NCBI GenBank assembly: GCA_965217585.1 | Contig: OZ244561.1 | Span: forward strand, 4,256,001-4,320,000 | DNA length: 64,000 bases | DNA from: Candidatus Latescibacterota bacterium | GTDB taxonomy: Bacteria > Latescibacterota > UBA2968 > UBA8231 | Reading direction: 5' to 3' | In this document: piece by piece, positions 43,812 through 60,426 of the stretch | Layout of the letters: each line of letters opens with the position of its first letter | Position numbering within the stretch: the stretch's first letter is position 1 | The notes under the pieces: generated by a model | The model's input: the letters and a program-made list of their open reading frames with translations, nothing else | What the model was told of the DNA's origin: nothing | Databases searched by the model: none | Position numbers and translations under genes: made by a program

Positions 43812-44630
43812 ATGGCCCCCAAGAAAGTCTTAATTACCGGCGTTTGCGGATTGATCGCCGGGGCTGTGTATCGGCATCTGCGCACCCAACCCGACCGCTA
43901 TGACCTCTATGGCCTAGCGCGGCGGTCCCAGCTTTCGGAGCGGGCACCCAGAGACACAGATTTGGGAATTCCCGAAGAGAAATTCACCCTTGCAGACCTG
44001 ACCGACTACAACGCGATAGCAAAGGCTGTCGAGGGTATGGACGTGGTCGTGCAACTGGCAGCCGACCCGCGGCCAGACGCTAGTTGGGAGAGCCTGCTCG
44101 GCAGCAATATAGTCGGGCCGCGCAATGTGCTAGAGGCTGCGCGCCGCGCTGGTGTCAGGAGAGTGGTCTTCGCCAGCTCGATCATGGTGTCTTGGGGCTA
44201 CCAGCAAGAGGATCCGTACAAAGCAATCTCCGAAGGGCGCTTCGACGCGGTCAATGCCGGTCAGGTACAGGCCGTGACTCACGAGTGGCCGCATCGGCCG
44301 ACTGGCCTCTATCCGGCGACCAAAATTTGGGGCGAGGCCCTAGCGCGCTACTACGCCGACGTACACAATATGTCGGTGCCCTGTTTGCGCATCGGCTGGG
44401 TCAATGCCGAGGACCATCCGCGCGACGAGCGGGGCGGGGCTATCTGGTGCAGCCAGCGCGACGTGGTACAACTCGTGCAGCGCGCGATCGAAGCTCCGGC
44501 AGACTTGCGCTTTGATATTTTTTACGGAGTGTCCAATAACCGCTGGCGCTGGGTCGATATTGACCACCCGCGCGAGGTCTTGGGCTATATCCCCGCAGAT
44601 AGCGCCGAAGAGAAGCTGGGGCTGGCCTGA
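43812..44630 (+). CDS. NAD-dependent epimerase/dehydratase (uronate dehydrogenase-like extended SDR)
   Basis: ITGVCGLIA, FASS, YPATK (YxxxK), CLRIGW. Confidence 0.82.
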   Translation: MAPKKVLITGVCGLIAGAVYRHLRTQPDRYDLYGLARRSQLSERAPRDTDLGIPEEKFTLADLTDYNAIAKAVEGMDVVVQLAADPRPDASWESLLGSNIVGPRNVLEAARRAGVRRVVFASSIMVSWGYQQEDPYKAISEGRFDAVNAGQVQAVTHEWPHRPTGLYPATKIWGEALARYYADVHNMSVPCLRIGWVNAEDHPRDERGGAIWCSQRDVVQLVQRAIEAPADLRFDIFYGVSNNRWRWVDIDHPREVLGYIPADSAEEKLGLA

Positions 44631-44634
44631 GCCA

Positions 44635-45189
44635 ATGGGCCGAACGCCTAAGACCAAAACGGACCTATTGTCCGTCAAGCTCTTCTTTCTCGTCCTAGGG
44701 GCCATTGCCGCCTACAATGTCGTTAATTGGGTGCGCGGCGAACCGGAATGGGAAGAGCGGAGCTATGAGCCGGGGGTCTTCACCGTACAGGTGGCCGGCC
44801 GGCCCAATCTGCGCAAGCTACGCGAGCCGTTGTCCTTCGGCGAGGTAGAGTTCCAATACCTGATGTTCGAGCGCGACGACGTGCAATACGCCGTTGCCTA
44901 TGGGGACGTGCCCGAGACCGTCCCAGCCGATAGTGCGATTGCCGCGCGCCGCGATGCCATCTTGCGGAAGGTGAAGGGGACGATCCTGTCGGAAGCCGCC
45001 GTTGAGATGGACGGGCATTCCGCTTGGCAGACGCAGATACAAGCTGAGGACGAAAGCCTCCTGAGATTGCAGTGCCTACAGGTGGGCCAACGGCTCTACA
45101 GCTTGATGGCGGTCGGAGCACCCTACGCGTTTGACGACCCCTCGGATATCGAGCGGTTTTTCGCGTCCTTCAGGCTCGTCAAGCCCTGA
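44635..45189 (+). CDS. Membrane-anchored hypothetical protein (possible PsbP/DcrB-like fold)
   Basis: ATG 44635, N-terminal TM, C-terminal RLYSLMAV...ERFFASFRL. Confidence 0.65.
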   Translation: MGRTPKTKTDLLSVKLFFLVLGAIAAYNVVNWVRGEPEWEERSYEPGVFTVQVAGRPNLRKLREPLSFGEVEFQYLMFERDDVQYAVAYGDVPETVPADSAIAARRDAILRKVKGTILSEAAVEMDGHSAWQTQIQAEDESLLRLQCLQVGQRLYSLMAVGAPYAFDDPSDIERFFASFRLVKP

Positions 45190-45205
45190 TGATAAGGAGT
45201 ATCAA

Positions 45206-46255
45206 GTGAAGCTGCTCAAAGAGCTATGCGAAAGTGCGGGGGTTCCCGGCCGAGAGGATCGGCTGCGCGAGATCGTGCGGCGGGAGCTCGCGCCCCTGAC
45301 CGACGAGATGCGGGTGGATGCCTTGGGCAACCTGATCGCTGTGAAGAAGGCGAGCAAGGGCAAAAAGGCCAAGAAGCTGATGATCGCCGCGCACATGGAC
45401 GAGATCGGTTTCGTGGTTTCACACATCGACGAGCGGGGCCTTTTGCGGCTGGTGCCCTTAGGCGGGCACGACCCGCGCAACATGGTGGCCCAAAGGGTCG
45501 TCGTCAGGGGCAAGAAGCGCGATCTACCGGGTTTGCTCTACCCAGGTATTAAACCACCGCACATCCAGACGGCGGCCGACCGCGATGCCAAGTTGGCCAT
45601 CAGCGACTTTATCGTCGATCTCTACCTGGCACCTGCCAAGGTCAAGCGCGAGGTCGAGCTTGGTGCGATGGTGACGTTGCAGCGGGATTTCGCCGAGATC
45701 GGCGACGGAGTTTCCTGTAAGGCCATGGACGATCGGGTTGCGCTCTACGTGATGATCCGCGCCATGCAGCAGGCCAAGACCTTTGGCTGTGAGACCTATG
45801 CGGTGGCCACTGTGCAGGAGGAGGTTGGCTTGCGGGGCGCGCAGGTAAGCGCGTTTGGGGTCGAGCCGGACCTGGGGGTAGCCCTCGACGTGACGCTGGC
45901 GGCCGATATTCCGGGGATACCCGAGCACGAGCAGGTGACGCGCTTAGGGCAGGGCGCAGCGATTAAACTGCTGGACTCGTCGGCGATCTCGCACCCGGGC
46001 TTGGTGGCTCAGCTCAGAGGGCTAGCGAAGAAGAGGAAAATCGAGTGCCAATTGGAAATCCTCCCTCTGGGCGGCACGGACGCCGGTGCCATGCAAAGGG
46101 TCCGTACTGGTGTGCCGGTGGCGACGATTTCAGTGCCGACTCGCTACATTCACACCTCGGTCGAGCTGGTTGACAAAGGCGACTTGCAAGCAGCCGTGGA
46201 TCTGCTGACCGCCTTTCTCGAAGAGGGCCATCGGGCCGACTTGACGCTCGTCTGA
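45206..46255 (+). CDS. M42 family aminopeptidase
   Basis: AAHMDEIG, KAMDDR, VQEEVGLRGA, GGTDAG, RYIHT; AAGGAG RBS with GTG. Confidence 0.93.
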   Translation: MKLLKELCESAGVPGREDRLREIVRRELAPLTDEMRVDALGNLIAVKKASKGKKAKKLMIAAHMDEIGFVVSHIDERGLLRLVPLGGHDPRNMVAQRVVVRGKKRDLPGLLYPGIKPPHIQTAADRDAKLAISDFIVDLYLAPAKVKREVELGAMVTLQRDFAEIGDGVSCKAMDDRVALYVMIRAMQQAKTFGCETYAVATVQEEVGLRGAQVSAFGVEPDLGVALDVTLAADIPGIPEHEQVTRLGQGAAIKLLDSSAISHPGLVAQLRGLAKKRKIECQLEILPLGGTDAGAMQRVRTGVPVATISVPTRYIHTSVELVDKGDLQAAVDLLTAFLEEGHRADLTLV

Positions 46256-46280
46256 ACGATCCCACCCGCAACGGGATCAT

Positions 46281-47189
46281 TCAGCCGAGAGTGATCCTCA
46301 ATACTGGACACTTCCGTCGAGCTCCGCGGGGAATGATACCGATGACATCGACTTTCGCTCCCATCTGCTCGAACTGCCCATGAATCCTATCGCACATGTC
46401 CATGGCAATTAGTAGGATCAGTCGTCCCGTGTGCTTCATGACGCGTAACAGCTCAGGCAACGAGTCCATGACGGCCTGACGGCAGGAACTCCGGAAGGGC
46501 GGTTCTGTGACGATCAGATCGAAGTGGTCGGTTCGTATTGGCAGATGTCTGGCATCGGCAACTACATACAAGTTCGGAAAGTTCACTGAGAGACCTGGAG
46601 ACAGGCTATCATCGATGTCGGACACGAAGACTGTGAGTCCACGACGTCTCCCTTCAAGGGCAAGCCCGCCAAATCCGGCAAATGGATCCAAGATGACATC
46701 CGTTGGCTTTGGATCAGCGATGTTGAACAGAAACCGGGCATCTAGAGTAGACACGGCTCGATGCCAGTTGTGTCCTGACACAACACGCCTGTCTCCATTC
46801 TGGACGATCTCGAACTTGCGATTGCTCGGGGCATCCGCCAGTAGCGCCTGCTTGTCTTGAACGTAAACCTCTGTCTGGTGCACCTTGTAATCACCAACGC
46901 GAATCCAGCCAAGAAGCCACCGTTCGCTCCGAACGGCAGAGATCTCCTCTCCACGGAAGGGCTCGTAGTGCTGGCCGACGATTGCTTCAGTAAACCCGAG
47001 GTCGCCTGCGAGTGCTGCGACTCGATCAGGAATGAGTGGCAGTTCGATCGACATCCGATGCCGTTCCCGCCGGTCCTTCTTGAGTTCTAGACCAAACCGG
47101 CGGTAGACAGCTAGGAACTCCGTCTTCGCCAACTCGTACGGAATGCCAATTCCTCCACGGCTGGTGCGGAAGTAGATCTCATACTGCAT
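46281..47189 (-). CDS. SAM-dependent methyltransferase (Trm11/Trm14-like amino-methyltransferase), cassette
   Basis: ILDPFAGFGG, DARHLP, TEPPF. Confidence 0.75.
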   Translation of the reverse strand: MQYEIYFRTSRGGIGIPYELAKTEFLAVYRRFGLELKKDRRERHRMSIELPLIPDRVAALAGDLGFTEAIVGQHYEPFRGEEISAVRSERWLLGWIRVGDYKVHQTEVYVQDKQALLADAPSNRKFEIVQNGDRRVVSGHNWHRAVSTLDARFLFNIADPKPTDVILDPFAGFGGLALEGRRRGLTVFVSDIDDSLSPGLSVNFPNLYVVADARHLPIRTDHFDLIVTEPPFRSSCRQAVMDSLPELLRVMKHTGRLILLIAMDMCDRIHGQFEQMGAKVDVIGIIPRGARRKCPVLRITLG

Positions 47190-47284
47190 ATCGCCTCAAT
47201 CCCCGACAGGCCTCAATGCCAATTCTCTCCTTAAGAGCGGATATATCTCAATCTATTCTGGATCAACTCGTTTTGTCCCATGTC

Positions 47285-47427
47285 GCTTAACGTCATGCCG
47301 GTTTGCGAACCTGGCTCTCACCCGAAGGGGCTGGCGCGAGCTTGGCCCTGCAAAGCGAGTGACAGAAGCCAGGTTGCCCGAAGGGCCAAGACGCGAATGT
47401 GCCGCAGCGTAAACTGCGCTGTTAAAT
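47285..47427 (-). repeat. attC-like site
   Basis: GCTTAAC...GCCGGTTTGCG...CGTAAACTGC...GTTAAAT. Confidence 0.75.
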
Positions 47428-47460
47428 GACGTGGGCCAATCCGCGGCAAGATATAACGGG

Positions 47461-48000
47461 CTAAACCTCCTCGGCGAAGTCCGATGAGAGAGCTCCCCGA
47501 AATCCAATGCGTTTGTGCGGATCTCTGTATTGAGTCAATTCGTAATGTCCGATCATGAAGCCTTGGGACTCCCAGAACGTCAGGGCGCTCGGATTGTCGC
47601 GGCGTACATTCAAGTCAATCCGATCGATACCCAAGCCGTCGGTGATTTCTGTTACGGCTTGTACAAGGAATGACCCAATGCCCTCTCGGCGTTGCGCAGG
47701 AACAACGTAGAAGTCATTGATCTTCGCGCTAGTGCCACTAATTGAAAATGAAACAAATCCAACCGGGGACCCTTCGCTGAGGCACCAGAAAATCCTTGGT
47801 TCCGGACTGGAAAGGGGAAACCGATCTGCGAAATACACATCGCGGCGATCCGATGAACGTACTGTATCTGCAGTTGGCATTGTCTCCAACCAGTAGGCGT
47901 CAACTAGTGGCCGAAACCTATCCTCAGCGGAAGGAAGCACCTGCTCGAATTCAAGGCGAACGGTCAAAACTCGTCTCTTCTCATATAAGGCCCATGTCAT
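47461..48000 (-). CDS. GNAT family N-acetyltransferase, cassette
   Basis: FYVVPAQRREGIG, NPSALTFWESQGF. Confidence 0.85.
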   Translation of the reverse strand: MTWALYEKRRVLTVRLEFEQVLPSAEDRFRPLVDAYWLETMPTADTVRSSDRRDVYFADRFPLSSPEPRIFWCLSEGSPVGFVSFSISGTSAKINDFYVVPAQRREGIGSFLVQAVTEITDGLGIDRIDLNVRRDNPSALTFWESQGFMIGHYELTQYRDPHKRIGFRGALSSDFAEEV

Positions 48001-48106
48001 TTAACAGCTTTCCGGTTTGCGAACCCGGAGCGAAGCGGAGGTATTCTCTCCTGTCTACGGTCCATCCGAACACCTCGTTTAGACACCGGTCTGTCGCGCC
48101 AATTTC

Positions 48107-48242
48107 AGGTAACGTTCCGCGGGTTGCCGATGTGTCCGCACATCAGCAGACAGATCGGGGCTTTCAATCAGTCCAACCCATCGGTTGCGGCCATTTTGGT
48201 TGGGTTATAGTTGGGTTGGGTCTCGGCAACTCGCCGTTATCG
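48107..48242 (-). repeat. attC-like site
   Basis: AGGTAAC...GCGGGTTGCCGA...TCGGCAACTCGC-C-GTTATCG. Confidence 0.7.
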
Positions 48243-48329
48243 GCTGTGGCGAAGGGGTGGTTTCGTCACTTTCAGCTCTTGAGATCGGGGCGACAATAGA
48301 GCGTGCACCATAGATTCAGCGTGCTTTGT

Positions 48330-48964
48330 TCATTTTGTCAGCACCGGTTTTCGCAAAGTGAAAGACTGGAAGTGCACGCCCTAGGGCTCGACTACGTGGA
48401 AATCCAAGACATCGAAATACTCCCGTACATATCCATGCATCTGATCGTCGGTTCGAAAAGAAAAAAATCGAGGAGGATCGTGCCAGTCGTTAGGCGCTTC
48501 GCCCTCAAACGGGTCACCCCCGTACACGCCCAAAAAAAAGAGACCGCCTGGAACTAAGACGTTTCGGATAGCAGCCAGTACGTCAGATAAATTGACATTC
48601 GGGACATGAAGCAGGCAATTCATTGCATAGACTGCGTCGAAAGAACTCAGGGGAAAGCCCAAATTTAGAAAGTCAGCCGGGTAGCCACGAGACCTTTAGC
48701 GCGGCAGCGTGCAACCATTTCCGGTGAAAGATCAGTCACAACTGTTTCTAACCCACCTTTCTGGAAAAACAAGCCATCCTGACCTGTCCCGGCACCGATC
48801 TCCAGAAGACTCACCTTACCCTCGGTGCGTACGATACTGAGAAAGTCTGCACGCTCAGTCAGCTTCCACGGGGCTTTCTCACGCTGATCGCGTTCTCCTG
48901 CGCTACCGTCATAGGCTACTTGAAGACGAGCGACGACATCTTTGTACTCGAACATTGCTTCCAT
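48330..48964 (-). pseudogene. Class I SAM methyltransferase pseudogene, cassette
   Basis: LEIGAGTG motif; frameshift near 48683 (ADFLNLGF continues in another frame); TAG at 48381-48383 followed by GVHFQSFTLRKPVLTK*. Confidence 0.8.
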
Positions 48965-49210
48965 TCATTGACCCATTGATTCAGCCTGCCCAAATATCAT
49001 AAGCGAATGTGATTACGATAATGAATGAATAGACGTCTTTGCTACTGCACGCTTTAACGCTTTTTCTGGGTGGGGTTGGGGCGATTGCCGATAACGGTCC
49101 CGCCGTGCGCGAACTGCCGGAGGCAGTTGGGCGAAGGCCCTCGTGGCCTGAGCAAGAAAGATAAGTCTGGATCCAAGCTACAACCTTCTGTTCTGTGACT
49201 CCGGGCTGGC

Positions 49211-49293
49211 GGCTAACGATTTGCCGTGCCCGAACCGTGTAGCGGTTGGGCGAAGGCGCCCAAGCGCCAAAGCCGGGCACGGACGTGTTACCG
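49211..49293 (-). repeat. attC-like site
   Basis: GGCTAAC...CCGTGCCCG...CGGGCACGG...GTTACCG. Confidence 0.75.
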
Positions 49294-49303
49294 GAAATGA
49301 ACA

Positions 49304-49813
49304 CTAACACGAGCGCTCGAGAAGTTTACGCATACGAGGCCGATGGATCTCTACGAACCAGGGGTCCAGAAAAGGCAAATACTCGAGCTGCCGGGAATCC
49401 GGAAGGAAAAAGAAGTCGCACTTATGACGTCGTCGGCAATTGGACGCCCCGCATTGACACTCCCAAACATCACCGTCAACCGCGTTCAACGAGTAGTCAA
49501 AGAAGAGTTCCTCGTTCGGACAAATATCGCGCATTGCCAATACGAACCGCTGCCTAAAAACAGAATACACGAAAACATTTGGATCGCAGGAGTGGTTAAA
49601 GAAGCCTGCGGGCTTTTGCATTAGCACCGTCGTGCCATCCGGTAGCCAGTCTCGGTGGATCGGATCTTCGCCCAATTCTGGCCTGAGCGGGTGTTCCTCG
49701 TCAACGACGCGGGTATCGTCGATTCGGTGAATGACCTCGCACCGGCGTATATAGGCCGTGGAAAACACGCCATAGCCGTGTAACGTTGATTTTTTCACAA
49801 CAACCTTGCTCAT
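49304..49813 (-). CDS. SET domain protein with post-SET cysteine motif, cassette
   Basis: HGYGVF, NHSCDPN, EELFFDY, CQCGASNCR. Confidence 0.9.
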   Translation of the reverse strand: MSKVVVKKSTLHGYGVFSTAYIRRCEVIHRIDDTRVVDEEHPLRPELGEDPIHRDWLPDGTTVLMQKPAGFFNHSCDPNVFVYSVFRQRFVLAMRDICPNEELFFDYSLNAVDGDVWECQCGASNCRRRHKCDFFFLPDSRQLEYLPFLDPWFVEIHRPRMRKLLERSC

Positions 49814-49842
49814 TTCTTGACAGCAGTTGGTTAGTTCGTTTC

Positions 49843-49931
49843 AGGTAACGTATTGCCGGTTTGCGAACCGCGGAGCGGTTACCGGAGGCCAAGGCGCCAT
49901 CGGCGCCGCAACGCAAAACGCGCTGTTATCG
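49843..49931 (-). repeat. attC-like site
   Basis: AGGTAAC...GCCGGTTTGCG...CGCAAAACGCGCT-GTTATCG; a second possible end (CGCAAACCGAGT-GTTGCCT) at 49989-50007. Confidence 0.7.
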
Positions 49932-50014
49932 GCAGTCGCCTTCGCAGCCCGTCCTCGAGAGGAGGCGTGGGGTGCGCAAACGAGAACTCGCAAACCGAGT
50001 GTTGCCTCGGTTGC

Positions 50015-50554
50015 TTACTCCTTCAATAGGCCAGCAGCAATGAGAGCGCGATGGTGCAGGGGTAGAAAAACGTCCAGCGCCAACTCCCCAAGGACTCCTT
50101 CAGGTTGAACCAGTTTGCGCGCCAGCGTCTCGTGTTCGGGCACCCACTCATTGAGCTCGACTCTCGCTAGCCAGATCGAGCGCACGAGCACTAGACCCTT
50201 TTCGTGCCCCCTGATGCACTCTCCGCGGGAGAATCCCAGAAGCTTTGCCTCTCTGACCTCAACGCATGCTTCCTCTCTCATCTCCCGCCGCAGGGTTTCC
50301 TCCCACGACTCGCTTCCTTCCGGTCTGCCTGCCGGGAATCCCCACGTTTCCCCATCTTGCGTAGCCAACACGACCTCGCCGTTGTCTGTCAAGCAAATAC
50401 CACCAGAGCCGTGGCGTTGCCCTTCCGGCACATCGTGAGAAGGAAACCAAGTGACGAGAACATCCTGTCCTCCCGTTTCTACCAGAAATGCTTCGTATTC
50501 CCTTGCTGGCCCTGATGCCTCAGACATCCATTGCCCTCTTTGGAATGTGATCAT
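50015..50554 (-). CDS. NUDIX hydrolase, probable cassette
   Basis: Nudix box GRPEGSESWEETLRREMREEA; start could be 50527. Confidence 0.85.
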   Translation of the reverse strand: MITFQRGQWMSEASGPAREYEAFLVETGGQDVLVTWFPSHDVPEGQRHGSGGICLTDNGEVVLATQDGETWGFPAGRPEGSESWEETLRREMREEACVEVREAKLLGFSRGECIRGHEKGLVLVRSIWLARVELNEWVPEHETLARKLVQPEGVLGELALDVFLPLHHRALIAAGLLKE

Positions 50555-50671
50555 GAGATGTGCTCCAATTTGCGTCCATTTCGTCCACCACCTGCACCGC
50601 TATAACCCAGTCGTTTTTGTCGGGAATGGGAAAGTCGGCGAGGGGAGCGTGACCGGTCTGATATTCCCCGT

Positions 50672-52822
50672 TCAGTATGCTACAGCGACGGGCTGCAGGC
50701 GGATCTCACTGCCCTTATCCGTCTCTACTTCCACCCGCGCCAGATAGATGCCAGGGCCGACCAGCTGTCCGGCTCCATCCCGACCGTCCCAGCGGGCCGT
50801 ATGGCGCCCCGCGGCCTGAGCCTCTGGCTGCGCCTGCCATACCCGCCGTCCGTCCAGGGCATAGATGCCGACCTTTACCTCGGACGCCTGCTGCACCCGG
50901 AACAAGGTATACTGGATGGATAACTGGTCGTTGACGCCGTCCCCCTGAGGGGTAAAAGCGCGGCTCCCCACCTCGAGATCCCCCAGAACTCCCCTTGCCG
51001 CGGAGGCCGACGCCACCACCACCAGCTGGTTGGAACCAAGCTCCTCGCTGACATCACCGCCTTCGACCCGCTGCAACAAGCTCTGTTCCCCGCGGTTGAA
51101 GACCTCCCCTCCGAACTCGCCGGCCTCGTCGTAGAGCACCGTTTCCAGCCCAATGCGCAGCCGCTGATCGCCCTCCGGACTCAAGCGGCGGGGCAAAAAT
51201 ACAACAAAACCGCTTTCCTCGTTCACGATGCTGTCCGGTTCCACGGCGCCCAGGGGCTCACCTATCTCCAGCCAGCCGAACTCCGCTTCCGCCGGCGTCA
51301 TGACCCGCACGACGTCGAAGCCGGTGCGATCCGCGCTGGAAAATTCAACGCCAATATCGTATACGAACGACTTTTTCTCGCCCGCCGGCACGCGAACTCG
51401 CCCGCCCTGCGGCTGGTGATTTTCCTCCAGGACCACCTCGCCCACGACCCGATCCGCCAACAGCGGCGCGATCTCGATCTGCAGCGAATCCAGCCGGGCA
51501 AAGTCAAAGAACGCATCCGTCTCTAGCTGCACCCGCAGCTGAAAGTAGCGCCCCCACGGCAGGCGCGGGTGCTGCCCCGACTCCTCGAGTGGCACCGACC
51601 AGAAACTCCAGTTTTTCAGATCCTCGACCACCGGCCCTCGGAATCCCACCGCCGGCACCGTGGCGCCGCGCGCCTCCAGTCTAGATATGGAACTGATCAA
51701 GGTCGCCCTCGGCACGGAGGAAGTCAGCCGTTCCCACTGTTTCTTGGTCACCTCCACGTGGGCTCCCAGATCGTCAAAGCCGAAGTAGGCCGTCGGAGTG
51801 TCGTCGCGACCCGTCCTGATCTCCACCTGGACGCGAACCGGCCCGTCCTCGAGGGCGACCAACTGCTCCCCGTCCTTGCGCCACTTGCTCACCTCGAAGA
51901 CCACTCGCCCGAAGTTGACCTCCCGCCCCAGGTCCACTATCTGCGACTCCCAGGTCGCCGTAGGCGCAAAACCCCGGCCGTAGACCTCCATCTCCGCATA
52001 AGCCGACTGGACGACGATCGGCTGACCGTCCAAAGTGACTCCGTCGGGGACTTCCAGCAGGCGCAAATAGCGCAAATTCTGCAGCGGGAAGCGGACCTCG
52101 GTGACGCTGTCGCGGTTGGCTTGGCGGTAGGCTAGCTGATTTTCCAGCGGGCAGCAGAAGCCCGCCCCGCGCCATCTGAAGCCCCGCTCCATCTCCTCTT
52201 CCATTATACCTCCCTCGTCCTGGCGGGCTGTCAGGCTGAATAATTTGAGGACATAGTTGGGACGAAAGGGCTGGTCGCTGTCGGGGCTCACCCCCTCGGG
52301 AGGGTAGAACACAAAGCGCTCCACCGGCACCTGCGCGCCCATATCTATCGTGTAATAGAAAGACGACCCCAATGGTGGGCGGCTGCGCCGGTCGGCGACC
52401 TCGTCCCTGCGCTCGACGTAGGTGGCGGGATCGCCGTCGACGAAGACGAGGAGGTCGGCCTGGTACAAAATGCCATAATTCCCCAGGTTCTCGTCGCGGC
52501 TCTTCAATAGAAAGTTGCCGTGTCCCAGCCACAAACGCGGATGACCCGGGTGGTAAACCGGGTCGAAGGTGAACCTGAAGGGCTGCCAGGGTCCCAACCG
52601 AGGCAAGAGGTTCTCGTCCGGCTTGAGTTCGAAAGGCTGGAGCGCCCCGGCGGCGGTCGAGTCGTCCGTCATCAGGCTGAAATCCGCTACTTCCGTCCAG
52701 GAAACGCCGCCCTCTCCTCCGAGCCGCCACCAATTTTCTTGGGCCGCCCCATGGCTGCAAAACCCTGCAATCCCACACAGCACGGCAAAGGCCAAAATCG
52801 CCACTTTCGCGTTTATGCGCAC
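50672..52822 (-). CDS. Large secreted protein with C-terminal FlgD-like Ig domain
   Basis: Signal peptide, FTPQGDGVND, WDGRDGAGQLVGPGIY; start uncertain (GTG 52822 or TTG 52843). Confidence 0.8.
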   Translation of the reverse strand: MRINAKVAILAFAVLCGIAGFCSHGAAQENWWRLGGEGGVSWTEVADFSLMTDDSTAAGALQPFELKPDENLLPRLGPWQPFRFTFDPVYHPGHPRLWLGHGNFLLKSRDENLGNYGILYQADLLVFVDGDPATYVERRDEVADRRSRPPLGSSFYYTIDMGAQVPVERFVFYPPEGVSPDSDQPFRPNYVLKLFSLTARQDEGGIMEEEMERGFRWRGAGFCCPLENQLAYRQANRDSVTEVRFPLQNLRYLRLLEVPDGVTLDGQPIVVQSAYAEMEVYGRGFAPTATWESQIVDLGREVNFGRVVFEVSKWRKDGEQLVALEDGPVRVQVEIRTGRDDTPTAYFGFDDLGAHVEVTKKQWERLTSSVPRATLISSISRLEARGATVPAVGFRGPVVEDLKNWSFWSVPLEESGQHPRLPWGRYFQLRVQLETDAFFDFARLDSLQIEIAPLLADRVVGEVVLEENHQPQGGRVRVPAGEKKSFVYDIGVEFSSADRTGFDVVRVMTPAEAEFGWLEIGEPLGAVEPDSIVNEESGFVVFLPRRLSPEGDQRLRIGLETVLYDEAGEFGGEVFNRGEQSLLQRVEGGDVSEELGSNQLVVVASASAARGVLGDLEVGSRAFTPQGDGVNDQLSIQYTLFRVQQASEVKVGIYALDGRRVWQAQPEAQAAGRHTARWDGRDGAGQLVGPGIYLARVEVETDKGSEIRLQPVAVAY

Positions 52823-52829
52823 CCGAACA

Positions 52830-53825
52830 TCAGGAATCCACAAGGCTTTTTAATCCACTTTCCAAGTCATCCAGCCATTGCGGCGTTTTGGGGTGAAAGG
52901 CTCCCAACACTTCCCAGAACCAGCACAAACCGGCACCCATGGTGGCTTGTCTGACTTTAAGGTACGTCTCATCTGGTTCTATCCGCACTCCACCTGCCTC
53001 CGCATACCCCGCCCAAAACTCCTGCGGATAGTGATCGCGACCATAAATTTCTTGAGGTTCTCGGGTAAACTCTGCTGCGACATGCAGTTGTTCATGTAGA
53101 AGGTCGCCAGTCGCTCCATTCTCAAAATCGTGAATGCCGACTATATGGCCATCATCATCAACCAAAAGATTGTGTATAGTTGCATCTCCCCATAGAAGCC
53201 CTTGAGGACTCGGATTCGGCACGACATCAATCTTGTCCAGAAGATCTTCGATAATGGGCAACTTGGCTTGACAATCTTCTGGCAGGTCGGCTACCAAGTC
53301 CTGATTGTAAAGGAGCTTTCTCCGTATGTCTTCTCGCCATTGGGTCATATCCTGCACGGGCAGAAGACCGTCGGATACTCTCTGTTCATTGATGGCAGCG
53401 ACCACTGAGCCAAATTCTTTGAGCAGGCGACACCGCCGATCATCGCTAGTACTGGGCATCTCGAAAAAGTCTCGTCCTTGAGTACCGGGGAGCAGACTAG
53501 AAATCAGATAAGGATATCCGAACGCATCGGTGTCCTCGCATAATACACTGATCTCCGGGACGGGCAGAGTGGTTGTATCGCGTAACAATGCGGTAATATT
53601 GAAATCGACCGCTAGCGAGAAGGCTTTTCGATACTTGATCTTGATCACATAGCTGCCGTCGCAACACACTGCCTTGTAGACACAGTTGGTTGGATTTGCT
53701 TCAAGTTCAGTCCATTCGATAACCGAGCCTAGCCCCTGTCTAGCAAAAGCCACTGCTCCCTGCTCAGCAGTAAAGGTCGGCTTTGCCTTGGAGGCTTCTA
53801 TAAATGCTTGCTTGCTGATCGCCAA
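52830..53825 (-). CDS. Aminoglycoside phosphotransferase/choline kinase-like protein, cassette
   Basis: YVIK, LPVPE, WGDATIHNLL (Brenner-like), HDFE. Confidence 0.75.
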   Translation of the reverse strand: MAISKQAFIEASKAKPTFTAEQGAVAFARQGLGSVIEWTELEANPTNCVYKAVCCDGSYVIKIKYRKAFSLAVDFNITALLRDTTTLPVPEISVLCEDTDAFGYPYLISSLLPGTQGRDFFEMPSTSDDRRCRLLKEFGSVVAAINEQRVSDGLLPVQDMTQWREDIRRKLLYNQDLVADLPEDCQAKLPIIEDLLDKIDVVPNPSPQGLLWGDATIHNLLVDDDGHIVGIHDFENGATGDLLHEQLHVAAEFTREPQEIYGRDHYPQEFWAGYAEAGGVRIEPDETYLKVRQATMGAGLCWFWEVLGAFHPKTPQWLDDLESGLKSLVDS

Positions 53826-53892
53826 ATCTACGCTCTGATATACTGTAACTTTCTTGATGTGCTAACTGATGTGCGCAAGGATCTCATTTTTC

Positions 53893-53980
53893 GCGTAACG
53901 TTCCCGGCACCCACGAACCTGCCGAAGGCGGGTTGGGCGGAGGGCCGTATGGCCCGAAGCCGTGGGTGCTCGTGTTACAC
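53893..53980 (-). repeat. attC-like site
   Basis: GCGTAAC...GCACCCACG...CGTGGGTGC...GTTACAC; the TAA stop of the upstream gene lies inside the inverse core. Confidence 0.85.
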
Positions 53981-54718
53981 GCTGACCGTGGTCCGACTCG
54001 GGCTTCCTTGATCTTTAGATGTCAGAGATTCCTCAAACCTACTCAGGCCTTCTTTGAACGTAGGACCGTAGGCCTCTTTCTTCTGTTCCAGACAGTCCGC
54101 GGCTTCCCGATACCTGGTATAGTCATCCTCGTTCAGAGCTCTGAACCCCTGGATTATCCTGTCCTCCAGGTTTGGCATTTGGTATTCTCCTTCGTTTTTC
54201 GGACAGAAGGGAATCCACGACCACTGAAACTGCCAATACATCAGAAAGACAGATTCATTGAATCTGTCCGTCAGACCAACGAAGTCGAACTCGCGGACAC
54301 CGCGTCCACCTCTCTTGAGCCACTTTGTGAAGCGATTATGATTATATCCGGGAGGATTCGGCCACTGGAACTCCTGATCGTGAGTCAACCATTCCGCGAG
54401 GCCTTTGTCATCGAAATGAGGTTCAGAACTATCGGCGGACCTTTTTCGAGTGTGGTGATACATCGAAATCGCCGACTCAAGTGGGTCCCTCAGAAAGGTC
54501 AGCCAAATGCAGTTCTCGTAAGATGTAATAAGACCAGTGAAGCGGTCAAGAACGCTGTGACCGTGAAGGCAGACTGGATTCTCTACGATAGGATCTTCCG
54601 GATGGTCATCATAAGTTCTCTGAAGCCGGGACCCAAACCGTGCCTCTAGAATTGAGGCCAGAGTGCTCCCACCCGTCTTTGGAATGTGTATGCTCACATA
54701 GAGCGGTTCTTTCGGCAC
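53975..54718 (-). CDS. Sulfotransferase-family protein, cassette
   Basis: HIPKTGGST (5'-PSB loop), FLRDP (3'-PB), FDFVGLTDRFNES. Confidence 0.8.
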   Translation of the reverse strand: MPKEPLYVSIHIPKTGGSTLASILEARFGSRLQRTYDDHPEDPIVENPVCLHGHSVLDRFTGLITSYENCIWLTFLRDPLESAISMYHHTRKRSADSSEPHFDDKGLAEWLTHDQEFQWPNPPGYNHNRFTKWLKRGGRGVREFDFVGLTDRFNESVFLMYWQFQWSWIPFCPKNEGEYQMPNLEDRIIQGFRALNEDDYTRYREAADCLEQKKEAYGPTFKEGLSRFEESLTSKDQGSPSRTTVSV

Positions 54719-54787
54719 GGAGAGTCCCCTATGGGTTGGTGCTCAATAAACCGGTGGCCGGGACCCGTAGTTCAGACCACGGTTTGC

Positions 54788-54881
54788 GTGTAACGGCCTC
54801 ACCATTTACGACCCCGCGCATGCGGGGTGGGCGGTAGCCCCAAGCGCCATATGGCGCGCAGCGTAAATGGATGTGTTAGAT
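54788..54881 (-). repeat. attC-like site
   Basis: GTGTAAC...CCATTTACG...CGTAAATGG...GTTAGAT. Confidence 0.85.
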
Positions 54882-55064
54882 GAAGTGAGCTCTTCATATA
54901 TGATATTACAAATGGGGCCGGTCAGCTCGATACGTTACCTGATGCCGGATTGCGCTGTCGGTCAACGCGCCGAGGGGAGGCATATCCAAAAAGAAGAAAA
55001 CGACCATTCGAGGCGCGATACTATGGGGTAACAGGCAGTGACAGTGTGCCCCAATTGCTTCCCG

Positions 55065-55174
55065 TCACTCGTCGATCCGATGTCGAAGTTCCTTGACGCG
55101 CGTGTCTTGCCGACCGCCGAAATAGAGTTCACTCTCTCATACGGGCCGTCAACCAGGTTGTAGAGCCCGTGCTC
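55065..55174 (-). pseudogene. Possible sulfatase C-terminal relic
   Basis: EHGLYNLVDGPYERVN, then frameshifted RVKELRHRIDE*; resembles the LYDLxxDPxExxN sulfatase tail. Confidence 0.4.
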
Positions 55175-55211
55175 GCTGGCTCGGCGTCCATCCAGAACCC
55201 CGTCGAAATTC

Positions 55212-56657
55212 TCACTCGCAGAACTGAAATGCGTAGAGCTTCGCGTCGCGCATGATGAAGCGTATCCTGACCGGTTGGCCGGCGAGTTGGCGAAGGTCGC
55301 CAGCGGGCCACGAAACGGGCAGCCTGACGGAATTGCCGACGTGCCATATTGAATCTGCGCCACTATACCCCTCAAGCGGACTTCCGTCTTCGGCGAGTAG
55401 TTCAACGCGCACGCTGCCTCCGGCGGCTGTGTCGACATTGAGTTTGAGGCGCGATCCGTCGAATATCAGCGCCGGTGTGGTGAACTTGCCCCCTTCGTAA
55501 GGGGCGTCGAGCGAAACAAAGCCGTCCAGGCGCATGACCGCCCGCCCGATGCCGCCGATGTGCTCGCCGTTGGCTGCATCGGTGCGACCCGCCCGGTCGT
55601 AGTTGATGCCGGCATAGTAAAACCAGATTTCGTCGCCCATCACAATCGGGTTGGGCAGGGCCCAAATCTGGCGCGAATCGAAACGACCATCGGGACCCGG
55701 GCGCATAAAGGCCTGGCGCTGGCCGCAGCGCACAAAGGTTTTGGTGTCGCGACTGAAGGCCAAACGCACGTCGCGCGTACCCGGCGCTCTCGCGGCGCCC
55801 TTGCCCGTCGGAATCCAGTGCCAGAACGCCTGCGCCAGCATGATGGTGATATCCGGGGCTTCTGAGTAGCGGAAGACGGTGGCGCCATAGAAGTCCACTG
55901 GCGGATCGTCGGATTCTGTTGGGTACAAGCCGCGATCCAGTTCGTCGGGCCACATGGCCAGGCCGGTATTTTCAATGTCCTTCAGGTCGGTCATTTCGGC
56001 GCGTCGCACGCTGCGAAAGCGGGCGTCGATCTCGGCCGTCGGCGTTTCGTCACTGCGCAGTTTGTGGCGGCCAAAAAACAGATAGCGCTGCAATGGCTCA
56101 TCCCAATAGACTATCGTCTGCGTATCCTTGGCGCCCTTCGGATCGATCTCGGCCCAGAGGGACCAGTGTATCCCGTCCGGCGAACTGAACATGTGAAACT
56201 TGCCGGACGGGTAGACCTTGGCCTGCGTCTTGTAGCGCTGCTCTTCCGGCGCCTGCGGATCAATCCATACCGAGGCGCCGCCGATGACGCCCGGCAAAAC
56301 GACGTTATTGTCCTGCGAGCCCCGCTTCTCGTGCAGACCCAGATGCGGCTTGACGAAGTGAATGCCGTCCTGCGATTCGGCATAACACACGCAGCGCTCG
56401 TGGTCGAAGGGGCCATCGCCCGTGGAGGTCAACAGATCATACCAGAGGCGCACGCGGCCATCGGCCTCCTTGAGGATACTGGACAACAAGTAGACCTCTC
56501 CGCCCACCTCCCATTCCCTGTCCGCCGTTAGCAATAATTCGCCGGTCGGGTACGGAGCATTCATGGTCAAGGCCACATTGTGCTTGCGCTCGACGAGCAT
56601 TTCATCGACAAACAGTTGTTTGCGCGATCCGATGCGAATAGTGGATGTAGTTTTCAT
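55212..56657 (-). CDS. Glycoside-hydrolase-like beta-propeller protein
   Basis: KQLFVD, YAESQDGIHFVKP, SSPDGIHW, RLDGFVSL, KLYAFQF. Confidence 0.65.
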   Translation of the reverse strand: MKTTSTIRIGSRKQLFVDEMLVERKHNVALTMNAPYPTGELLLTADREWEVGGEVYLLSSILKEADGRVRLWYDLLTSTGDGPFDHERCVCYAESQDGIHFVKPHLGLHEKRGSQDNNVVLPGVIGGASVWIDPQAPEEQRYKTQAKVYPSGKFHMFSSPDGIHWSLWAEIDPKGAKDTQTIVYWDEPLQRYLFFGRHKLRSDETPTAEIDARFRSVRRAEMTDLKDIENTGLAMWPDELDRGLYPTESDDPPVDFYGATVFRYSEAPDITIMLAQAFWHWIPTGKGAARAPGTRDVRLAFSRDTKTFVRCGQRQAFMRPGPDGRFDSRQIWALPNPIVMGDEIWFYYAGINYDRAGRTDAANGEHIGGIGRAVMRLDGFVSLDAPYEGGKFTTPALIFDGSRLKLNVDTAAGGSVRVELLAEDGSPLEGYSGADSIWHVGNSVRLPVSWPAGDLRQLAGQPVRIRFIMRDAKLYAFQFCE

Positions 56658-56672
56658 CTCCTGAACTCCGTC

Positions 56673-58091
56673 CTAGGCCCTGAGCCACGCCTCCGTCATT
56701 TCCCGTTCCACATCGCTCCACCCGGGCAGAATCCCGGCCATGGCTTCTTCGTACGCCGTAGGCCCGATCTCCTCCCGCCACGCGGAGAAGGACGCTTTGT
56801 CATAGGCCTTCGCCCTGGCATCGATCGCTTCGTAGTCGACGATTTCCCGCAGTTTGCGATCCATCTCCCCAGCGAGCTCGGGCCGCTTTGTCGCAAGATC
56901 CTCGACCTCCTCCGGATCTTCTGCGAGATTGAACAACTGCAGGGCGTATCCGGCGTAGGCGACGTACTTCAAATCGCCCTGTCGCAACATAAATTCGCCG
57001 GTGTTGGCGAATCGGCTGTGGTACTGGCACAGCACTCGGTCCGGTCGATCCGCCCGTTTGCCGACTAGTTCGGGCATCAGCGACACGCCGTCCAGGTCAT
57101 CCGGCGTATCGAGTTCGGCCATGTCCATAAACGTCGGATAAAGGTCTACCAAGGACACCAGCGCATCGACCTCGTGCCCCGCGCGTACATCCGGGCCGGC
57201 GACGATCAGCGGCACGCGAGCGGACGCCTCGTACATCGCGTTTTTCAGATGTTGGCGATGTTCCATATTCATCTCGCCGTGATCGCTGGCGAACAGTACA
57301 TAGGTGCTGTCCATTAGCCCGAGCCGATCGACCGTGGCCATCACCTCACCTACCATCTCGTCGACTTCCGTCACCATCGCGAAATACGTGCGCCGCACCG
57401 TGCGAATTTCGTCTTCGGTGAACGGATCGGCGCAGCCCTTGGTCGCGCACATGTAGTCCACCACGGGATGCAGATGGGCCTCATACGGTGGAATGGTCAC
57501 TGCGTCGGGGTCAATTCTGTCGAGATAGTATTGCGAGGAGACGAAAGCGGGGTGCGGACAATCCAAACTGCAGTGCAGGATGAAGGGTCGGTCGTCCGCC
57601 TGGCGCGTCTCCAGGTAGGCGATGGTGTCCTCGACCTTAGCCCAGTCGCGCTGGTGTACGCGACGCTCATCCGTTGCGATGTGCTTCAGGCCCGGAAGCG
57701 GTCCGGTGCTGCGCGATAGCCGGATGTTGGCCGCGCGGGTCCAGGACGATATTCGATTGTGCAGTGAATGGCGGCCTGACAGGTAATCCGTCTTGCCGTA
57801 GGCCTGGTGGATATAGCCCGCGTCCTCCAGGTCGGAGACATAGGTTCGCTCGTCCGGCTCGAGCCCCTTATAATTGTTCCATCCTTCGATGACGTGGGTG
57901 TGCTTGCCGCTCCAGCGACTGGAGCGCGACGGGCAACACTGGGGAGAGCTGCAATAGGTGTTGCGGAACAGAGCGCCGCGCTCCGCCAGATGGTCCAGGT
58001 GCGGCGTCTTCACCGCCGGATGGCCGACGCACCCCATCGCGCGCCCGTCCATGCTGTCGCACTCGATGAACAGGATGTTCCGCTTGCTCAT
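56673..58091 (-). CDS. Sulfatase (FGly-dependent, choline-sulfatase-like)
   Basis: CCPSR (CxPxR), SDHGEM, YEASARVPL, LFNLAEDPEE. Confidence 0.92.
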   Translation of the reverse strand: MSKRNILFIECDSMDGRAMGCVGHPAVKTPHLDHLAERGALFRNTYCSSPQCCPSRSSRWSGKHTHVIEGWNNYKGLEPDERTYVSDLEDAGYIHQAYGKTDYLSGRHSLHNRISSWTRAANIRLSRSTGPLPGLKHIATDERRVHQRDWAKVEDTIAYLETRQADDRPFILHCSLDCPHPAFVSSQYYLDRIDPDAVTIPPYEAHLHPVVDYMCATKGCADPFTEDEIRTVRRTYFAMVTEVDEMVGEVMATVDRLGLMDSTYVLFASDHGEMNMEHRQHLKNAMYEASARVPLIVAGPDVRAGHEVDALVSLVDLYPTFMDMAELDTPDDLDGVSLMPELVGKRADRPDRVLCQYHSRFANTGEFMLRQGDLKYVAYAGYALQLFNLAEDPEEVEDLATKRPELAGEMDRKLREIVDYEAIDARAKAYDKASFSAWREEIGPTAYEEAMAGILPGWSDVEREMTEAWLRA

Positions 58092-59143
58092 GGCGTCGTC
58101 GGTGCGTCCTCGCTCGGATCCCAGATGGTCGCCGCGATGTGCTGCTGGGGATGCTCGGCGCTATTGAAGTAGTAGATCGTCACGAGCTTACCGTCCGGTC
58201 TTACGACCATGCGCGGATAACCCATGTCTCCGTACTGCGCCCCGTCACGGATCGCGATCTCTTCACCCCACTGGGTCCCGTCAGGGGACGTGAATCGGGC
58301 GCGTATCCCGCTCTGTTTGCCTGCCCGGTAGCCGTAGGCGCACACGAGGCGTCCGTCGGCGAGGCGGACCAAAGCCGGCGGATTGCCGTTGGAGGGGAGG
58401 TCGGGCGGGTGGGTGGCGGCGACCTTGCCCAAGAAGCGCCAGGAGACGCCGCCATCGACCGATTCGGCCGAGTCGATCCAGCTATTCTTGACGAATTCTC
58501 CATCGACCTCCAGGTCCCGGCGGCGGCGCATGGCGCTGACGAGGTGCCCCTCGCCGACGCGCACCGTCGAGGGCATGACCGAACGCGTATCGGGCGGCTC
58601 GGGAAGCATCCAGGCGACGAAGGAGAAGCTCTTGCCGCCGTCGTTCGTGCGGGCGCAGAACGCCCTATCCCGGAGCCCCGCCATCACCTGTGGGGCCCGC
58701 ACCGACAGGAAGAACAGGCACTCGTTCTCGCCGAGGACGAGATAGTCGGTGCGGGATGTGAGCTGCTCGGAGAAGCCGAAATCCGGGAAAAGGTACGGCC
58801 CCCGCCAGGAGCGACAGCGATCGTAGGAGACGAGGAGGCGGTTGGCAGAGCAGCGGATCGCCAGATTGGGGTGGGTGAAGTCGATCGCCTCGGCCGGAAT
58901 CGGTTCCGCCGCCATATTATAGCTGGCCGCTTCTTCCCGCTGCCAACTCTCGCCCCCGTCGCGGCTGCGCGAAAGGGCTGGGAAGGATGGTTGCTCACCA
59001 CTGATTCGGTGGCCCTGTTCCTTGAACTCGTAGGCACCGTTCGTATAGCCAACGACGATCTCGTCCGCCCAGCTCCATACCCCATCGTTGGCCGGCCAGC
59101 CCAGGAATCGGCCTTCCTCTCTGGCTACGATAATATGCTTCAT
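58088..59143 (-). CDS. Sialidase-like BNR/Asp-box protein
   Basis: SRDGGESW, TNDGGKSF, SVDGGVSW, SPDGTQW, DMGYP. Confidence 0.8.
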   Translation of the reverse strand: MKHIIVAREEGRFLGWPANDGVWSWADEIVVGYTNGAYEFKEQGHRISGEQPSFPALSRSRDGGESWQREEAASYNMAAEPIPAEAIDFTHPNLAIRCSANRLLVSYDRCRSWRGPYLFPDFGFSEQLTSRTDYLVLGENECLFFLSVRAPQVMAGLRDRAFCARTNDGGKSFSFVAWMLPEPPDTRSVMPSTVRVGEGHLVSAMRRRRDLEVDGEFVKNSWIDSAESVDGGVSWRFLGKVAATHPPDLPSNGNPPALVRLADGRLVCAYGYRAGKQSGIRARFTSPDGTQWGEEIAIRDGAQYGDMGYPRMVVRPDGKLVTIYYFNSAEHPQQHIAATIWDPSEDAPTTP

Positions 59144-59180
59144 GAGACGACCTTCATGATGGCGTACGGGGATAAGAAGA

Positions 59181-59204: not shown

Positions 59205-59210
59205 AGAAGA

Positions 59211-59287
59211 TGGTGGGCGATCGCAGACTTGAACTGCGGACCTCCTGCATGTCAAGCAGGCGCTCTAGCCAGCTGAGCTAATCGCCC
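59211..59287 (-). tRNA. tRNA-Val(GAC)
   Basis: GGGCGATTAGCTCAG...CCTGC-TTGACAT-GCAGG...GCCCACCA, 77 nt. Confidence 0.96.
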
Positions 59288-59316
59288 TCGTGTTGCCTAA
59301 TTGCAGACGGGCCAAT

Positions 59317-60421: not shown

Positions 60422-60426
60422 CGCCG

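Follow-up and report, generated by a model that had tools for sequence, protein, structure and literature searches.

An Orphan Gene-Cassette Array, Probably of an Unrecognised Integron Variant, in a Latescibacterota Genome

Integrons are the textbook system of gene capture, and their integrase is defined by an extra domain. What moved the genes of an array that carries integron-like sites in a genome with no such enzyme? The question is raised by a 64,000-nucleotide stretch of Candidatus Latescibacterota bacterium (GenBank assembly GCA_965217585.1, contig OZ244561.1, positions 4,256,001 to 4,320,000 of the forward strand; herein the window, whose own numbering is used below). An earlier note made from the letters alone had described positions 46281..54942 as a cluster of attC sites lacking an integron integrase (CALIN), with a shared site family. 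The cassette array, the shared sites, and the absence of an integrase all stand; the end at 54942 does not, since the array runs to 59167 and has further cassettes as well as decayed sites absent from the note's list, and strict membership among the integrons is doubtful because the geometry of the sites is noncanonical and the sites of relatives adjoin an IntI-like recombinase that lacks the IntI-specific domain. We conclude that the orphan cassette array is real and that it probably belongs to an unrecognised integron variant. Very probably, positions 46257-59167 hold an orphan array of about 10 gene cassettes, lying between a peptidase gene and tRNA-Val and shaped by integron-like exchange at AAC triplets through an enzyme since lost.

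A Family of Folding Sites

The six palindromes listed in the earlier note (47285-47427, 48107-48242, 49211-49293, 49843-49931, 53893-53980, and 54788-54881) are exact from heptamer to heptamer. The corresponding sites, all on the plus strand and each adjoining the stop codon of a minus-strand gene, span 47281..47431 (site 1; AAC at 47289-47291, GTT at 47421-47423), 48103..48246 (site 2), 49207..49297 (site 3), 49839..49935 (site 4), 53889..53984 (site 5), and 54784..54885 (site 6). They are imperfect palindromes of 80-150 nt, sites 1 and 2 with a long variable loop. Along the plus strand a site opens with TTKC-nnn-TAAC, a G facing T, four unpaired bases, and a 2-bp step; it continues with a 9-bp stem whose sequence is free and with two hairpins, the first a small AACC..GGTT one and the other GC-rich; and it returns through the stem arm, one bulged base (5/6 sites), the step, and a T to GTTA-nnn-G, with 3-4 bases before GTTA. 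Motifs shared among sites, as the note had them, are present: CCGGTTTGCGAACC occurs five times in the whole genome, three of them in the window, and GTTGGGCG-x-AGG lies at 49126, 49245, and 53932. The single stop codon said to fall inside an inverse core is TTA 53975-53977, within GTTACAC 53974-53980; the GTTA core of site 5 thus holds the stop of the next gene.

Plain alignments of the sites fall out of register, and a covariance model (R1) was therefore built from six in-register sites of this genome with a hand-written structure, Infernal realigning the rest; the second model (R2) drew on 64 sites from several phyla, those of relatives together with those of the window. RNAalifold on plain MAFFT alignments had missed the main stem through register shifts, and a scan written by hand to seek perfect-stemmed AAC..GTT palindromes was dropped for want of enrichment, its counts in the genome versus a reversed control being 52 vs 90, 164 vs 320, and 591 vs 1149. 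R1 scores sites 1, 3, 4, 5, and 6 at 26.9, 100, 43.5, 82.3, and 44 bits and does not pick up site 2. Run without filters on 44000-61000, R2 recovers 6/6 sites on the plus strand (45.9, 31.4, 81.5, 61, 79.8, and 54.6 bits for sites 1 to 6; E from 2e-17 to 2e-5, with 6e-9 for site 1 and 1.7e-5 for site 2); together with one truncated site they lie within 7.7 kb. Five of the six beat 200 shuffles when the plus strand is folded (z of -2.13, -2.68 for site 2, -3.98 for site 3, -3.30, and -4.00 for site 6); the sixth stretch, 49838-49938, reaches only -0.84 against as many shuffles.

With R1, 21 sites are recovered from the window and from five further loci of this genome. In their alignment, 91.1% of cells are paired versus 31-37% with slid partners (the alignment, being fitted to R1, leans toward the structure, and the slid controls carry the same bias); both sides have changed in 17/28 pairs, and in 8/10 stem pairs, and the covariation score is reached by 0/500 shuffles. 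Across alignments of 14 to 21 sites, TAAC and GTTA vary little or not at all, and R-box cells are 97% paired. Covariation of stem arms whose sequence is otherwise free thus argues for selection for folding. The two strands are not equivalent: the places of the window sites score 31-82 bits on the plus strand and 9-14 bits on the minus strand with R2, G.T pairs number 49 vs 22 A.C pairs, and the plus-strand fold is the more stable in 14/21 sites (mean 1.17 kcal/mol, p 0.023).

Applied to the entire genome (7.32 Mb, a single contig), R1 returns 19 matches at E<=1. These fall in few clusters, near 0.10, 0.61-0.62, 2.10, 2.17-2.19, 2.27, 3.28-3.32, and 4.30-4.31 Mb; each multisite cluster is co-oriented, and a nhmmer profile yields the same clusters. 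An opposite-strand open frame of at least 70 codons ends within 200 nt of 21/21 sites, against 228/400 random places. Clustered and always at gene ends, the sites are therefore not a dispersed repeat. Sites of the family are carried by 20/31 genomes of the genus. The further clusters of this genome (contig G000:C1) are also without an integrase; they lie at 0.61-0.62, 2.10, 2.16-2.19, 2.27, and 3.275-3.32 Mb, with a single site at 98731-98804, and two of them have cassettes in common with the window.

Exchange at the AAC Triplet

Two cassettes of the window have copies in other arrays of the genome. The unit of a GNAT acetyltransferase gene (47372-48026) recurs at 618955-619609, in the array at 0.619 Mb, with 96.5% identity over 656 nt; identity ends exactly at the AAC triplet of the next site (48003-48005), beyond which the spacers differ. 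The unit of a Nudix hydrolase gene (49846-50545) recurs at 3291209-3290509, in the array at 3.29 Mb, with 94.9% identity over 704 nt. Both duplicated cassettes include their own site at the 3' end of the gene, the GNAT copy sharing the 3' half of it.

The flanks of neighbouring sites are complementary across the gene between them. In sites 1, 3, and 5, 18 nt counted from the GTT pair with the AAC flank of the following site, on the far side of the gene; mismatches number 2, 4, and 2, compared with 4, 11, and 8 of 18 for the AAC flank of the same physical site; the inverted repeats I1 and I2 are such complementary flanks. This pairing is what would be expected of a unit [C..site..gene..AA] once it had closed on itself as a circle.

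Public metagenome contigs (four runs from four studies, aligned at 90% likeness) carry alternative junctions. In two studies (X1, X5), position 48005 is joined to 48118 with GTTTT between; an AAC-to-AAC unit has been removed, and the stretch 48006-48113 between two AAC triplets is missing from these contigs. In another joint, 50545 is followed by 34 letters that restore the start of the Nudix cassette and then by the TAAC of site 5; a third runs from the end of the left flank, 46256, to 52808. Contigs end at 46256, at 53900 (three runs), and at 59167 (three runs). We count the joints as support, not proof; uncovered stretches and differences of depth among the aligned contigs are given no weight, and RNA runs contain only small shares of the sequence words. 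Cassette order differs among natural populations, with exchange at AAC triplets, and the exchanged triplet is the AAC at the 5' end, on the plus strand, of each site, at the resolution of a triplet and not of a bond. The boundaries of the cassette copies and the contig joints fix the polarity of the sites; with the exchanged AAC at the plus-strand 5' end, the genes are therefore on the other ("top") strand, as in integrons. The G.T and A.C counts and the greater plus-strand stability given above are weaker signs that point the same way.

The corresponding chromosomal place is also occupied by arrays in three congeners (G012, G022, and G044), where some of the cassettes recur in a different order. 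The flanks common to them end at 46256, after a gene for an M42 peptidase, and restart at 59168 with a hairpin and tRNA-Val; synteny with G022 breaks off at 46256, and the right flank is conserved from 59168/59169. The array therefore spans 46257-59167 (~13 kb). Every gene from 46281 to 59143 is on the minus strand, which bears out the co-orientation claimed earlier. A cassette is one unit, usually of one minus-strand gene and in one case of three. The small cassettes have a G+C content of 50-57% and the flanks 60%; the larger cassettes are host-like at 61-65%.

In the mechanism that we propose, cassettes would have been inserted, lost, and reordered by a tyrosine recombinase swapping strands at AAC, the left end of the site on the plus strand. 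Following the attC x attC logic of integrons, a unit [C..site..gene..AA] would leave as a circle whose site closes on itself. The substrate would be a folded single strand and the acting enzyme, most likely, an IntI-like recombinase without the IntI-specific (I2) domain.

Absence of an Integrase from This Genome

The genome-wide search for intI that the earlier note had called for returned none, the best match to TIGR02249 reaching 84 bits against a cut-off of 265; no intI with an IntI-specific domain, as a complete integron would have, is in the window or the genome. None of the five PF00589 genes of the genome falls in the window, where no tyrosine recombinase had been seen, or near an array. 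A tblastn search for remnants (E<=5; queries were canonical IntI and the array-type recombinase of relatives described below) led to three housekeeping Xer-like genes and found no integrase remnant; it also gave one chance-level match near the 3.31-Mb array (E 3.8). The term integrase-less array holds because the genome is without IntI and without a remnant of it.

In G012 and G022, 34-40 residues of the C-terminal end of a tyrosine recombinase remain between array and tRNA flank, with identities of 59-62% (array-type enzyme) and 50-53% (IntI); the region is one that all of them conserve. Their place in the window is taken by a truncated three-gene cassette. Within the genus, the array-type recombinase occurs in G017 only, intact on a 2.5-kb contig that bears no site, and a canonical but broken IntI in G015 only. 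With the enzyme lost from the genome, the array is now either frozen or reliant on an enzyme supplied in trans. It also shows signs of decay: half sites and a truncated one, an in-frame stop within a gene, and the deletion of one end of the array.

A Recombinase without the IntI-Specific Domain beside Arrays of Relatives

In 12/12 related genomes checked (a sample that left out multicopy and short-contig cases), the nearest site lies 0.7-6.0 kb from a gene for an IntI-like recombinase without the IntI-specific domain, in both gene orientations. The gap is 678 nt in G101, after an array of 36 sites; 907 and 1037 nt at two genes of G096; 909 nt in G040, 922 nt in G084, 1177 nt in G097, 1319 nt in G047, 1395 nt in G102, 1423 nt in G093, 1788 nt in G077, 1960 nt in G030, and 3695 nt in G100; and about 5-6 kb in G065. 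The closest solved structure to this recombinase is IntI4 (2a3v, E 4e-45), with 18 residues where IntI4 has 60. Aligned to the canonical IntI of the class (37-39% identity), it lacks both inserts of the IntI-specific region. Its catalytic-core motifs are spaced by 65-72 aa (57/80 loci of the set below) versus 107 aa in canonical IntI (3/7). Among NCBIfam models it scores 212-235 bits with XerA NF040815 (cut-off 220) and 215-241 with TIGR02249 (cut-off 265). A sister relation to IntI is not claimed, the tree having been made by a quick method and rooted at its midpoint, with 36/86 inner branches open.

Canonical IntI is present in 12/132 genomes of the class. Around the 8 canonical IntI genes fetched, R1 gives no site (E<=1) out to 10 kb; a generic energy-based hairpin scan near these genes is too insensitive to speak to arrays of their own.

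The association extends to other phyla. A set with one genome per species yielded 80 loci of the domain-less recombinase family, spread over many phyla; R2 detects a total of 94 sites (E<=0.05) at 23/80 of these loci, and sites at 0/9 canonical IntI loci. The loci with sites include Desulfitobacterium sp. Sab5 (12), Paenibacillus solani (10), Halanaerobacter, a Spirochaetia metagenome-assembled genome (MAG), and a Dehalococcoidia genome; the pairing of recombinase and sites is thus seen in Bacillota, Chloroflexota, and Spirochaetota. The common site pattern is TTKC-nnn-ATAAC-GTTyy ... yTGTTAT-nnG, and in Bacillota the arrays begin 0.3-1.7 kb past the recombinase gene in a fixed orientation. 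Over 10 arrays with 68 sites, flank partners of successive sites differ by 2.95/14 mismatches on average (43/57 pairs with <=3), compared with 6.1/14 for the site's own partner (8/68 with <=3) and 6.75 for random pairs (3.2% with <=3). This cross-gene pairing indicates that the same cassette logic operates in those phyla. An archaeal MAG (L083) has a recombinase of the family at 10001-10813 and one weak site match at 11159-11243 (E 0.048), 0.35 kb downstream.

On this basis, namely that a domain-less recombinase ends arrays of the same site family in relatives and in other phyla, we lean with moderate confidence toward an IntI-like recombinase without the I2 domain as the likeliest enzyme of the window array; the link comes from association.

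Alternative Explanations

Foremost among the alternatives is an ordinary CALIN, in which a lost canonical IntI with its I2 domain moved the cassettes and the domain-less recombinase is there for another reason, as an island integrase or as an array-targeting element. The AAC and GTT triplets, the R-box pairing, the gene orientation, and the exchange point are all integron-like, and canonical IntI does occur both in the class and, broken, in a congener. Moreover, in G049 a canonical IntI gene directly precedes a multicopy domain-less recombinase, and some members of that family act like mobile elements. Set against this, the sites adjoin the domain-less recombinase in all of the related genomes checked and in the 23 loci of the wider set, and none were found by R1 or R2 around canonical IntI genes; G093 has both enzymes, and its site adjoins the domain-less one; and the Bacillota arrays begin 0.3-1.7 kb past the recombinase gene in a fixed orientation. 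We therefore regard an ordinary CALIN as unlikely.

The recombinase of G049 is a protein of 314 aa encoded ~0.4 kb downstream of the canonical IntI gene (G049:C1:2493564-2495712 and 2158606-2160397). Near-identical copies number three, equal in score, in G049 and six, at six places, in G048; its appearance is that of a mobile element, perhaps one targeting integrons.

A second alternative, which we hold to be a shade less probable again, is that the cassettes are duplex Xer-type modules, exchanged within the AACGTT palindrome at the left end of the site as at dif or pdif, with the hairpin serving for termination or as a cruciform. TAAC-GTT is nearly invariant at the end where exchange occurs, and the enzyme is XerA-like as much as IntI-like, judging by its NF040815 scores and by 4a8e, with which it aligned in one stretch; it is also without the domain said to have enabled single-strand recombination (Escudero 2020). 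Three features of the sites speak against a duplex core: the covariation of stem arms of free sequence (8/10 stem pairs changed on both sides); the complementarity of unit ends over 14-23 nt, which is expected of a self-folding closed site and needless for a duplex core; and the strand asymmetry in model scores, in G.T versus A.C pairs, and in fold stability. It is very improbable that the sites are terminators or REP/MITE-like repeats that play no part in moving genes: they are GC-rich hairpins downstream of genes, and simple palindrome scans do give many AAC..GTT hairpins genome-wide, yet the sites are restricted to few co-oriented clusters and follow gene ends in 21/21 cases, the reverse of the dispersed repeats that the earlier note had named as its refutation, and cassette copies bounded at AAC, flanks complementary across genes, alternative junctions in populations, and the recombinase linkage in relatives all speak against such a reading.

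The account of an orphan array exchanged at AAC by a domain-less enzyme has observations weighing against it as well. With respect to the sites, many cores deviate from consensus as the earlier note had said, only 1/6 in the window fitting RYYYAAC and 2/6 fitting GTTRRRY. The folding that the note advised does reveal unpaired bases, on the AAC arm and not on the canonical opposite arm: there are ~4-5 on the former and just a 1-nt bulge on the latter (5/6 sites). The central spacers are of 7 vs 4 nt and not of 5-6 each, the difference in stability between the strands is small, and Rfam at gathering thresholds reports no attC-like family and only three tRNAs in the window. As to exchange, the left halves of the GNAT and Nudix sites diverge more between copies than the genes do, which means that exchange at AAC is not the sole process; homologous exchange between similar sites is likely also at work. 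For sites 4 and 6 the window contains no partner flank, and the sides of the contig joints have just ~28-34 letters, so that some may come from related organisms or other arrays. The enzyme link has its own weaknesses. The 12 related genomes were chosen, two by partial TIGR02249 hits and ten as the best recombinase matches on long contigs; the array-adjacent recombinase genes of G030, G040, and G101 are frameshifted or interrupted; and the recombinase tree is poorly resolved. Of the wider set, 57/80 loci have no sites, many of them being short contigs and R2 being biased to one phylum, and the 23 loci with sites are therefore a floor.

Relation to Known Systems

By its working, that is, by folding sites, exchange at AAC, and gene orientation, the array is a CALIN whose sites were called by our own covariance models and not by those of IntegronFinder. 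CALINs are described as clusters of attC sites without an integron integrase, with a minimum of two sites in IntegronFinder, and have been proposed to be degraded integrons (Cury 2016; Neron 2022). The array resembles them in having at least two co-oriented sites after promoterless-looking genes, no IntI nearby or in the genome, and signs of decay. It differs in its cores, mostly off consensus, in its unpaired bases on the AAC arm, and in that the family of its relatives is tied to a recombinase outside IntegronFinder's definition of IntI. The window sites share with attC the AAC/GTT R box, a stem conserved in structure and not in sequence, and the position after a stop codon; they depart from it in the core consensus, in the arm that bears extrahelical bases, and in the spacers. 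In attC as described by Nivina 2016, the extrahelical bases are on the arm opposite the AAC of the recombined strand, and the central spacer is of 5-6 nt per arm.

The Vibrio cholerae superintegron offers a further comparison. Its VCR sites are likewise homogeneous within a lineage, 80-150 nt long, and long and variable in their terminal structures (in part after Nivina 2016); relatives of the window genome likewise have large arrays (the 36 sites of G101), and in both systems the cassettes encode small accessory enzymes. Unlike that superintegron, the genome studied here has no IntI, its arrays are split over several loci, and the integrase type of its relatives is different.

"Reverse" integrons, such as that of Treponema denticola, have an IntI with the additional domain. 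In G040, G065, G084, G077, and Bacillota, the recombinase gene is codirectional with the cassettes, its 3' end toward the array, as in these; unlike them, both orientations occur in the present family, G101, G097, G047, G100, and G102 being divergent. The canonical IntI of known structure (VchIntIA/IntI4, PDB 2a3v) is the best structural match of the array-adjacent recombinase, which differs from it in its shortened insert, its motif spacing, and its subcut-off TIGR02249 score. Xer recombination takes place at dif, and the CTX phage integrates through a folded single strand. The present system would be similar in that an Xer-like enzyme without the I2 domain possibly acts on a hairpin mimicking a duplex site; it differs from Xer/dif in having gene-cassette arrays that exchange between like sites, and no dif-like partner site was identified here.

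Cury 2016 mentions four domain-less recombinases near attC sites, placed between IntI and Xer and each with <3 sites, and concludes that these are not IntI; arrays of 10-36 sites beside the domain-less enzyme do not fit that conclusion. In the literature searched, which took in neither most subscription journals nor the survey supplements, where some of these loci may be listed, no description was found of the recombinase-site pairing or of Latescibacterota integrons. We tentatively suggest, a little short of an even chance, that the array is a relic of an undescribed integron-like class found across phyla (Latescibacterota; Bacillota, with Desulfitobacterium and Paenibacillus; Chloroflexota; Spirochaetota; Gemmatimonadota), with an IntI-like integrase without the I2 domain and unpaired bases on the arm opposite to that of canonical attC. 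Should this be so, the standard definitions of an integron would overlook such arrays or class them as integrase-less, and cassette platforms would exist in Gram-positive and candidate phyla now thought to be nearly free of integrons; surveys report almost none in Firmicutes (Cury 2016; Neron 2022). Gain of the extra domain has been described as what opened the way to single-strand recombination (Escudero 2020). If the domain-less enzyme does serve these arrays, the origin of integrons would become testable through living intermediates or a parallel lineage, a large pool of mobile cassettes would be hidden in uncultured and Gram-positive lineages, and a second family of structure-specific recombination sites would be available as a tool. 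Taken by itself, the array of this genome has a more modest meaning: it is a frozen, decaying store of accessory genes, for an acetyltransferase, methyltransferases, a Nudix hydrolase, a kinase, and secreted and glycan-degrading proteins, whose content differs among natural populations.

Gene Content and Flanks of the Array

On the left, the array is bounded by the gene of an M42 glutamyl aminopeptidase (45131..46255, plus strand; PF05343, 1e-86), with which the conserved flank ends at 46256. It is followed by a methyltransferase-like open reading frame (ORF) of 302 aa (46281..47189, minus strand) that matches Pfam UPF0020 and Methyltransf_11, and TIGR01177 at 48 bits, below cut-off. Neither the sequence nor the R2 scan has a site between 46256 and 46281, where that of the 302-aa ORF would be; the ORF is either a terminal cassette that lost its site or a noncassette gene.

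The GNAT acetyltransferase gene (47461..48000, minus strand; PF00583, 8e-16) lies between site 1 and a half site (47991..48028, plus strand; repeat family D1) that consists of an AAC end and 5' stem arm. Beyond site 2, an in-frame TAA (48665-48667) breaks the gene of a class I SAM methyltransferase (48381..48964, minus strand) into two same-frame ORFs, each of which matches one half of Methyltransf_11/25; contigs of other runs have single-base indels near this TAA (48532, 48682). The truncated site at 49085..49200 (plus strand; R2 21.4 bits, E 0.004; repeats D2 and I21) keeps the AAC end, the 5' stem arm, and the inner hairpins and is without its GTT end and 3' arm, both lost. The sequence that flanks it on the left (..GCGATTGCCGATAAC) is the start that the Nudix type of cassette lacks, as the joints 50545->49069 and 50545->53896 indicate.

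Between sites 3 and 4 is a cassette gene for a SET-domain protein (49304..49813, minus strand; PF00856, 1e-14), whose start flank is the one that pairs with the site-3 flank (4/18 mismatches). The Nudix hydrolase gene (50015..50554, minus strand; PF00293) follows site 4 and has its 5' end replaced after 50545. At 50602..50677 on the plus strand there may be an atypical or decayed site (TATAAC ... GTTCAGT) of the next cassette, whose copy in G044 ends at 50602; it is detected by neither R1 nor R2. That cassette encodes a secreted protein of 723 aa with a FlgD-Ig / T9SS C-terminal domain (50672..52843, minus strand; PF13860, PF13585). The gene is a separate cassette in congener arrays, 97% identical in G012, G044, and G011, with breakpoints at 52808/52810. 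Paralogues of the stretch 50668-52354 lie outside arrays at G000:C1:1515808-1514167 and 2444792-2445574 (73% and 64% DNA identity), and a host gene family may have been the source of the cassette.

A putative site remnant (52805..52829, plus strand; ..CGTTTATGCGCACCCGAAC), suggested by the G012 and G044 breakpoints and the joint 46256->52808, separates the 723-aa gene from that of an APH-family phosphotransferase (52830..53825, minus strand; PF01636, 3e-16), which is 97% identical, and separately placed, in G012 and G044. Site 5 is followed by a gene of 247 aa (53975..54718, minus strand) flanked by the 23-nt inverted repeat I1 (87%); its protein belongs to no known family, having no Pfam or NCBIfam match.

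Past site 6 comes the body of a large cassette (54886..59167, minus strand) with three genes by Pfam, for a 481-aa protein of unknown family (55212-56657), a sulfatase (56673-58091), and a BNR-repeat protein (58088-59143); its last ~30 nt and anything beyond are deleted. G040, which belongs to another family, has pieces of it, ~2 kb in all, at 98-99% identity. Some 30 nt past the segment, that genome has ..TTCATCTAAC, the partner of the site-6 flank GTTAGATGAAG; the window copy is cut at 59167. The three-gene segment looks like a recent transfer of a large cassette. Window positions 55157-59167 correspond to 15040-17058 of the G040 locus (L022) in pieces of 303, 1464, and 261 nt, the G040 copy having two internal deletions, and in both genomes the sulfatase/BNR/481-aa segment adjoins arrays of the same site family.

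The right flank carries tRNA-Val(GAC) at 59211..59287 on the minus strand (ARAGORN, Rfam), in synteny with G012, G022, and G044. Past it, R2 has a weak match on the minus strand (60513-60583, 17.7 bits, E 0.029) that may be an unrelated hairpin. Two more tRNA genes, both on the minus strand, lie at 29136-29209 and 31517-31590 of the window.

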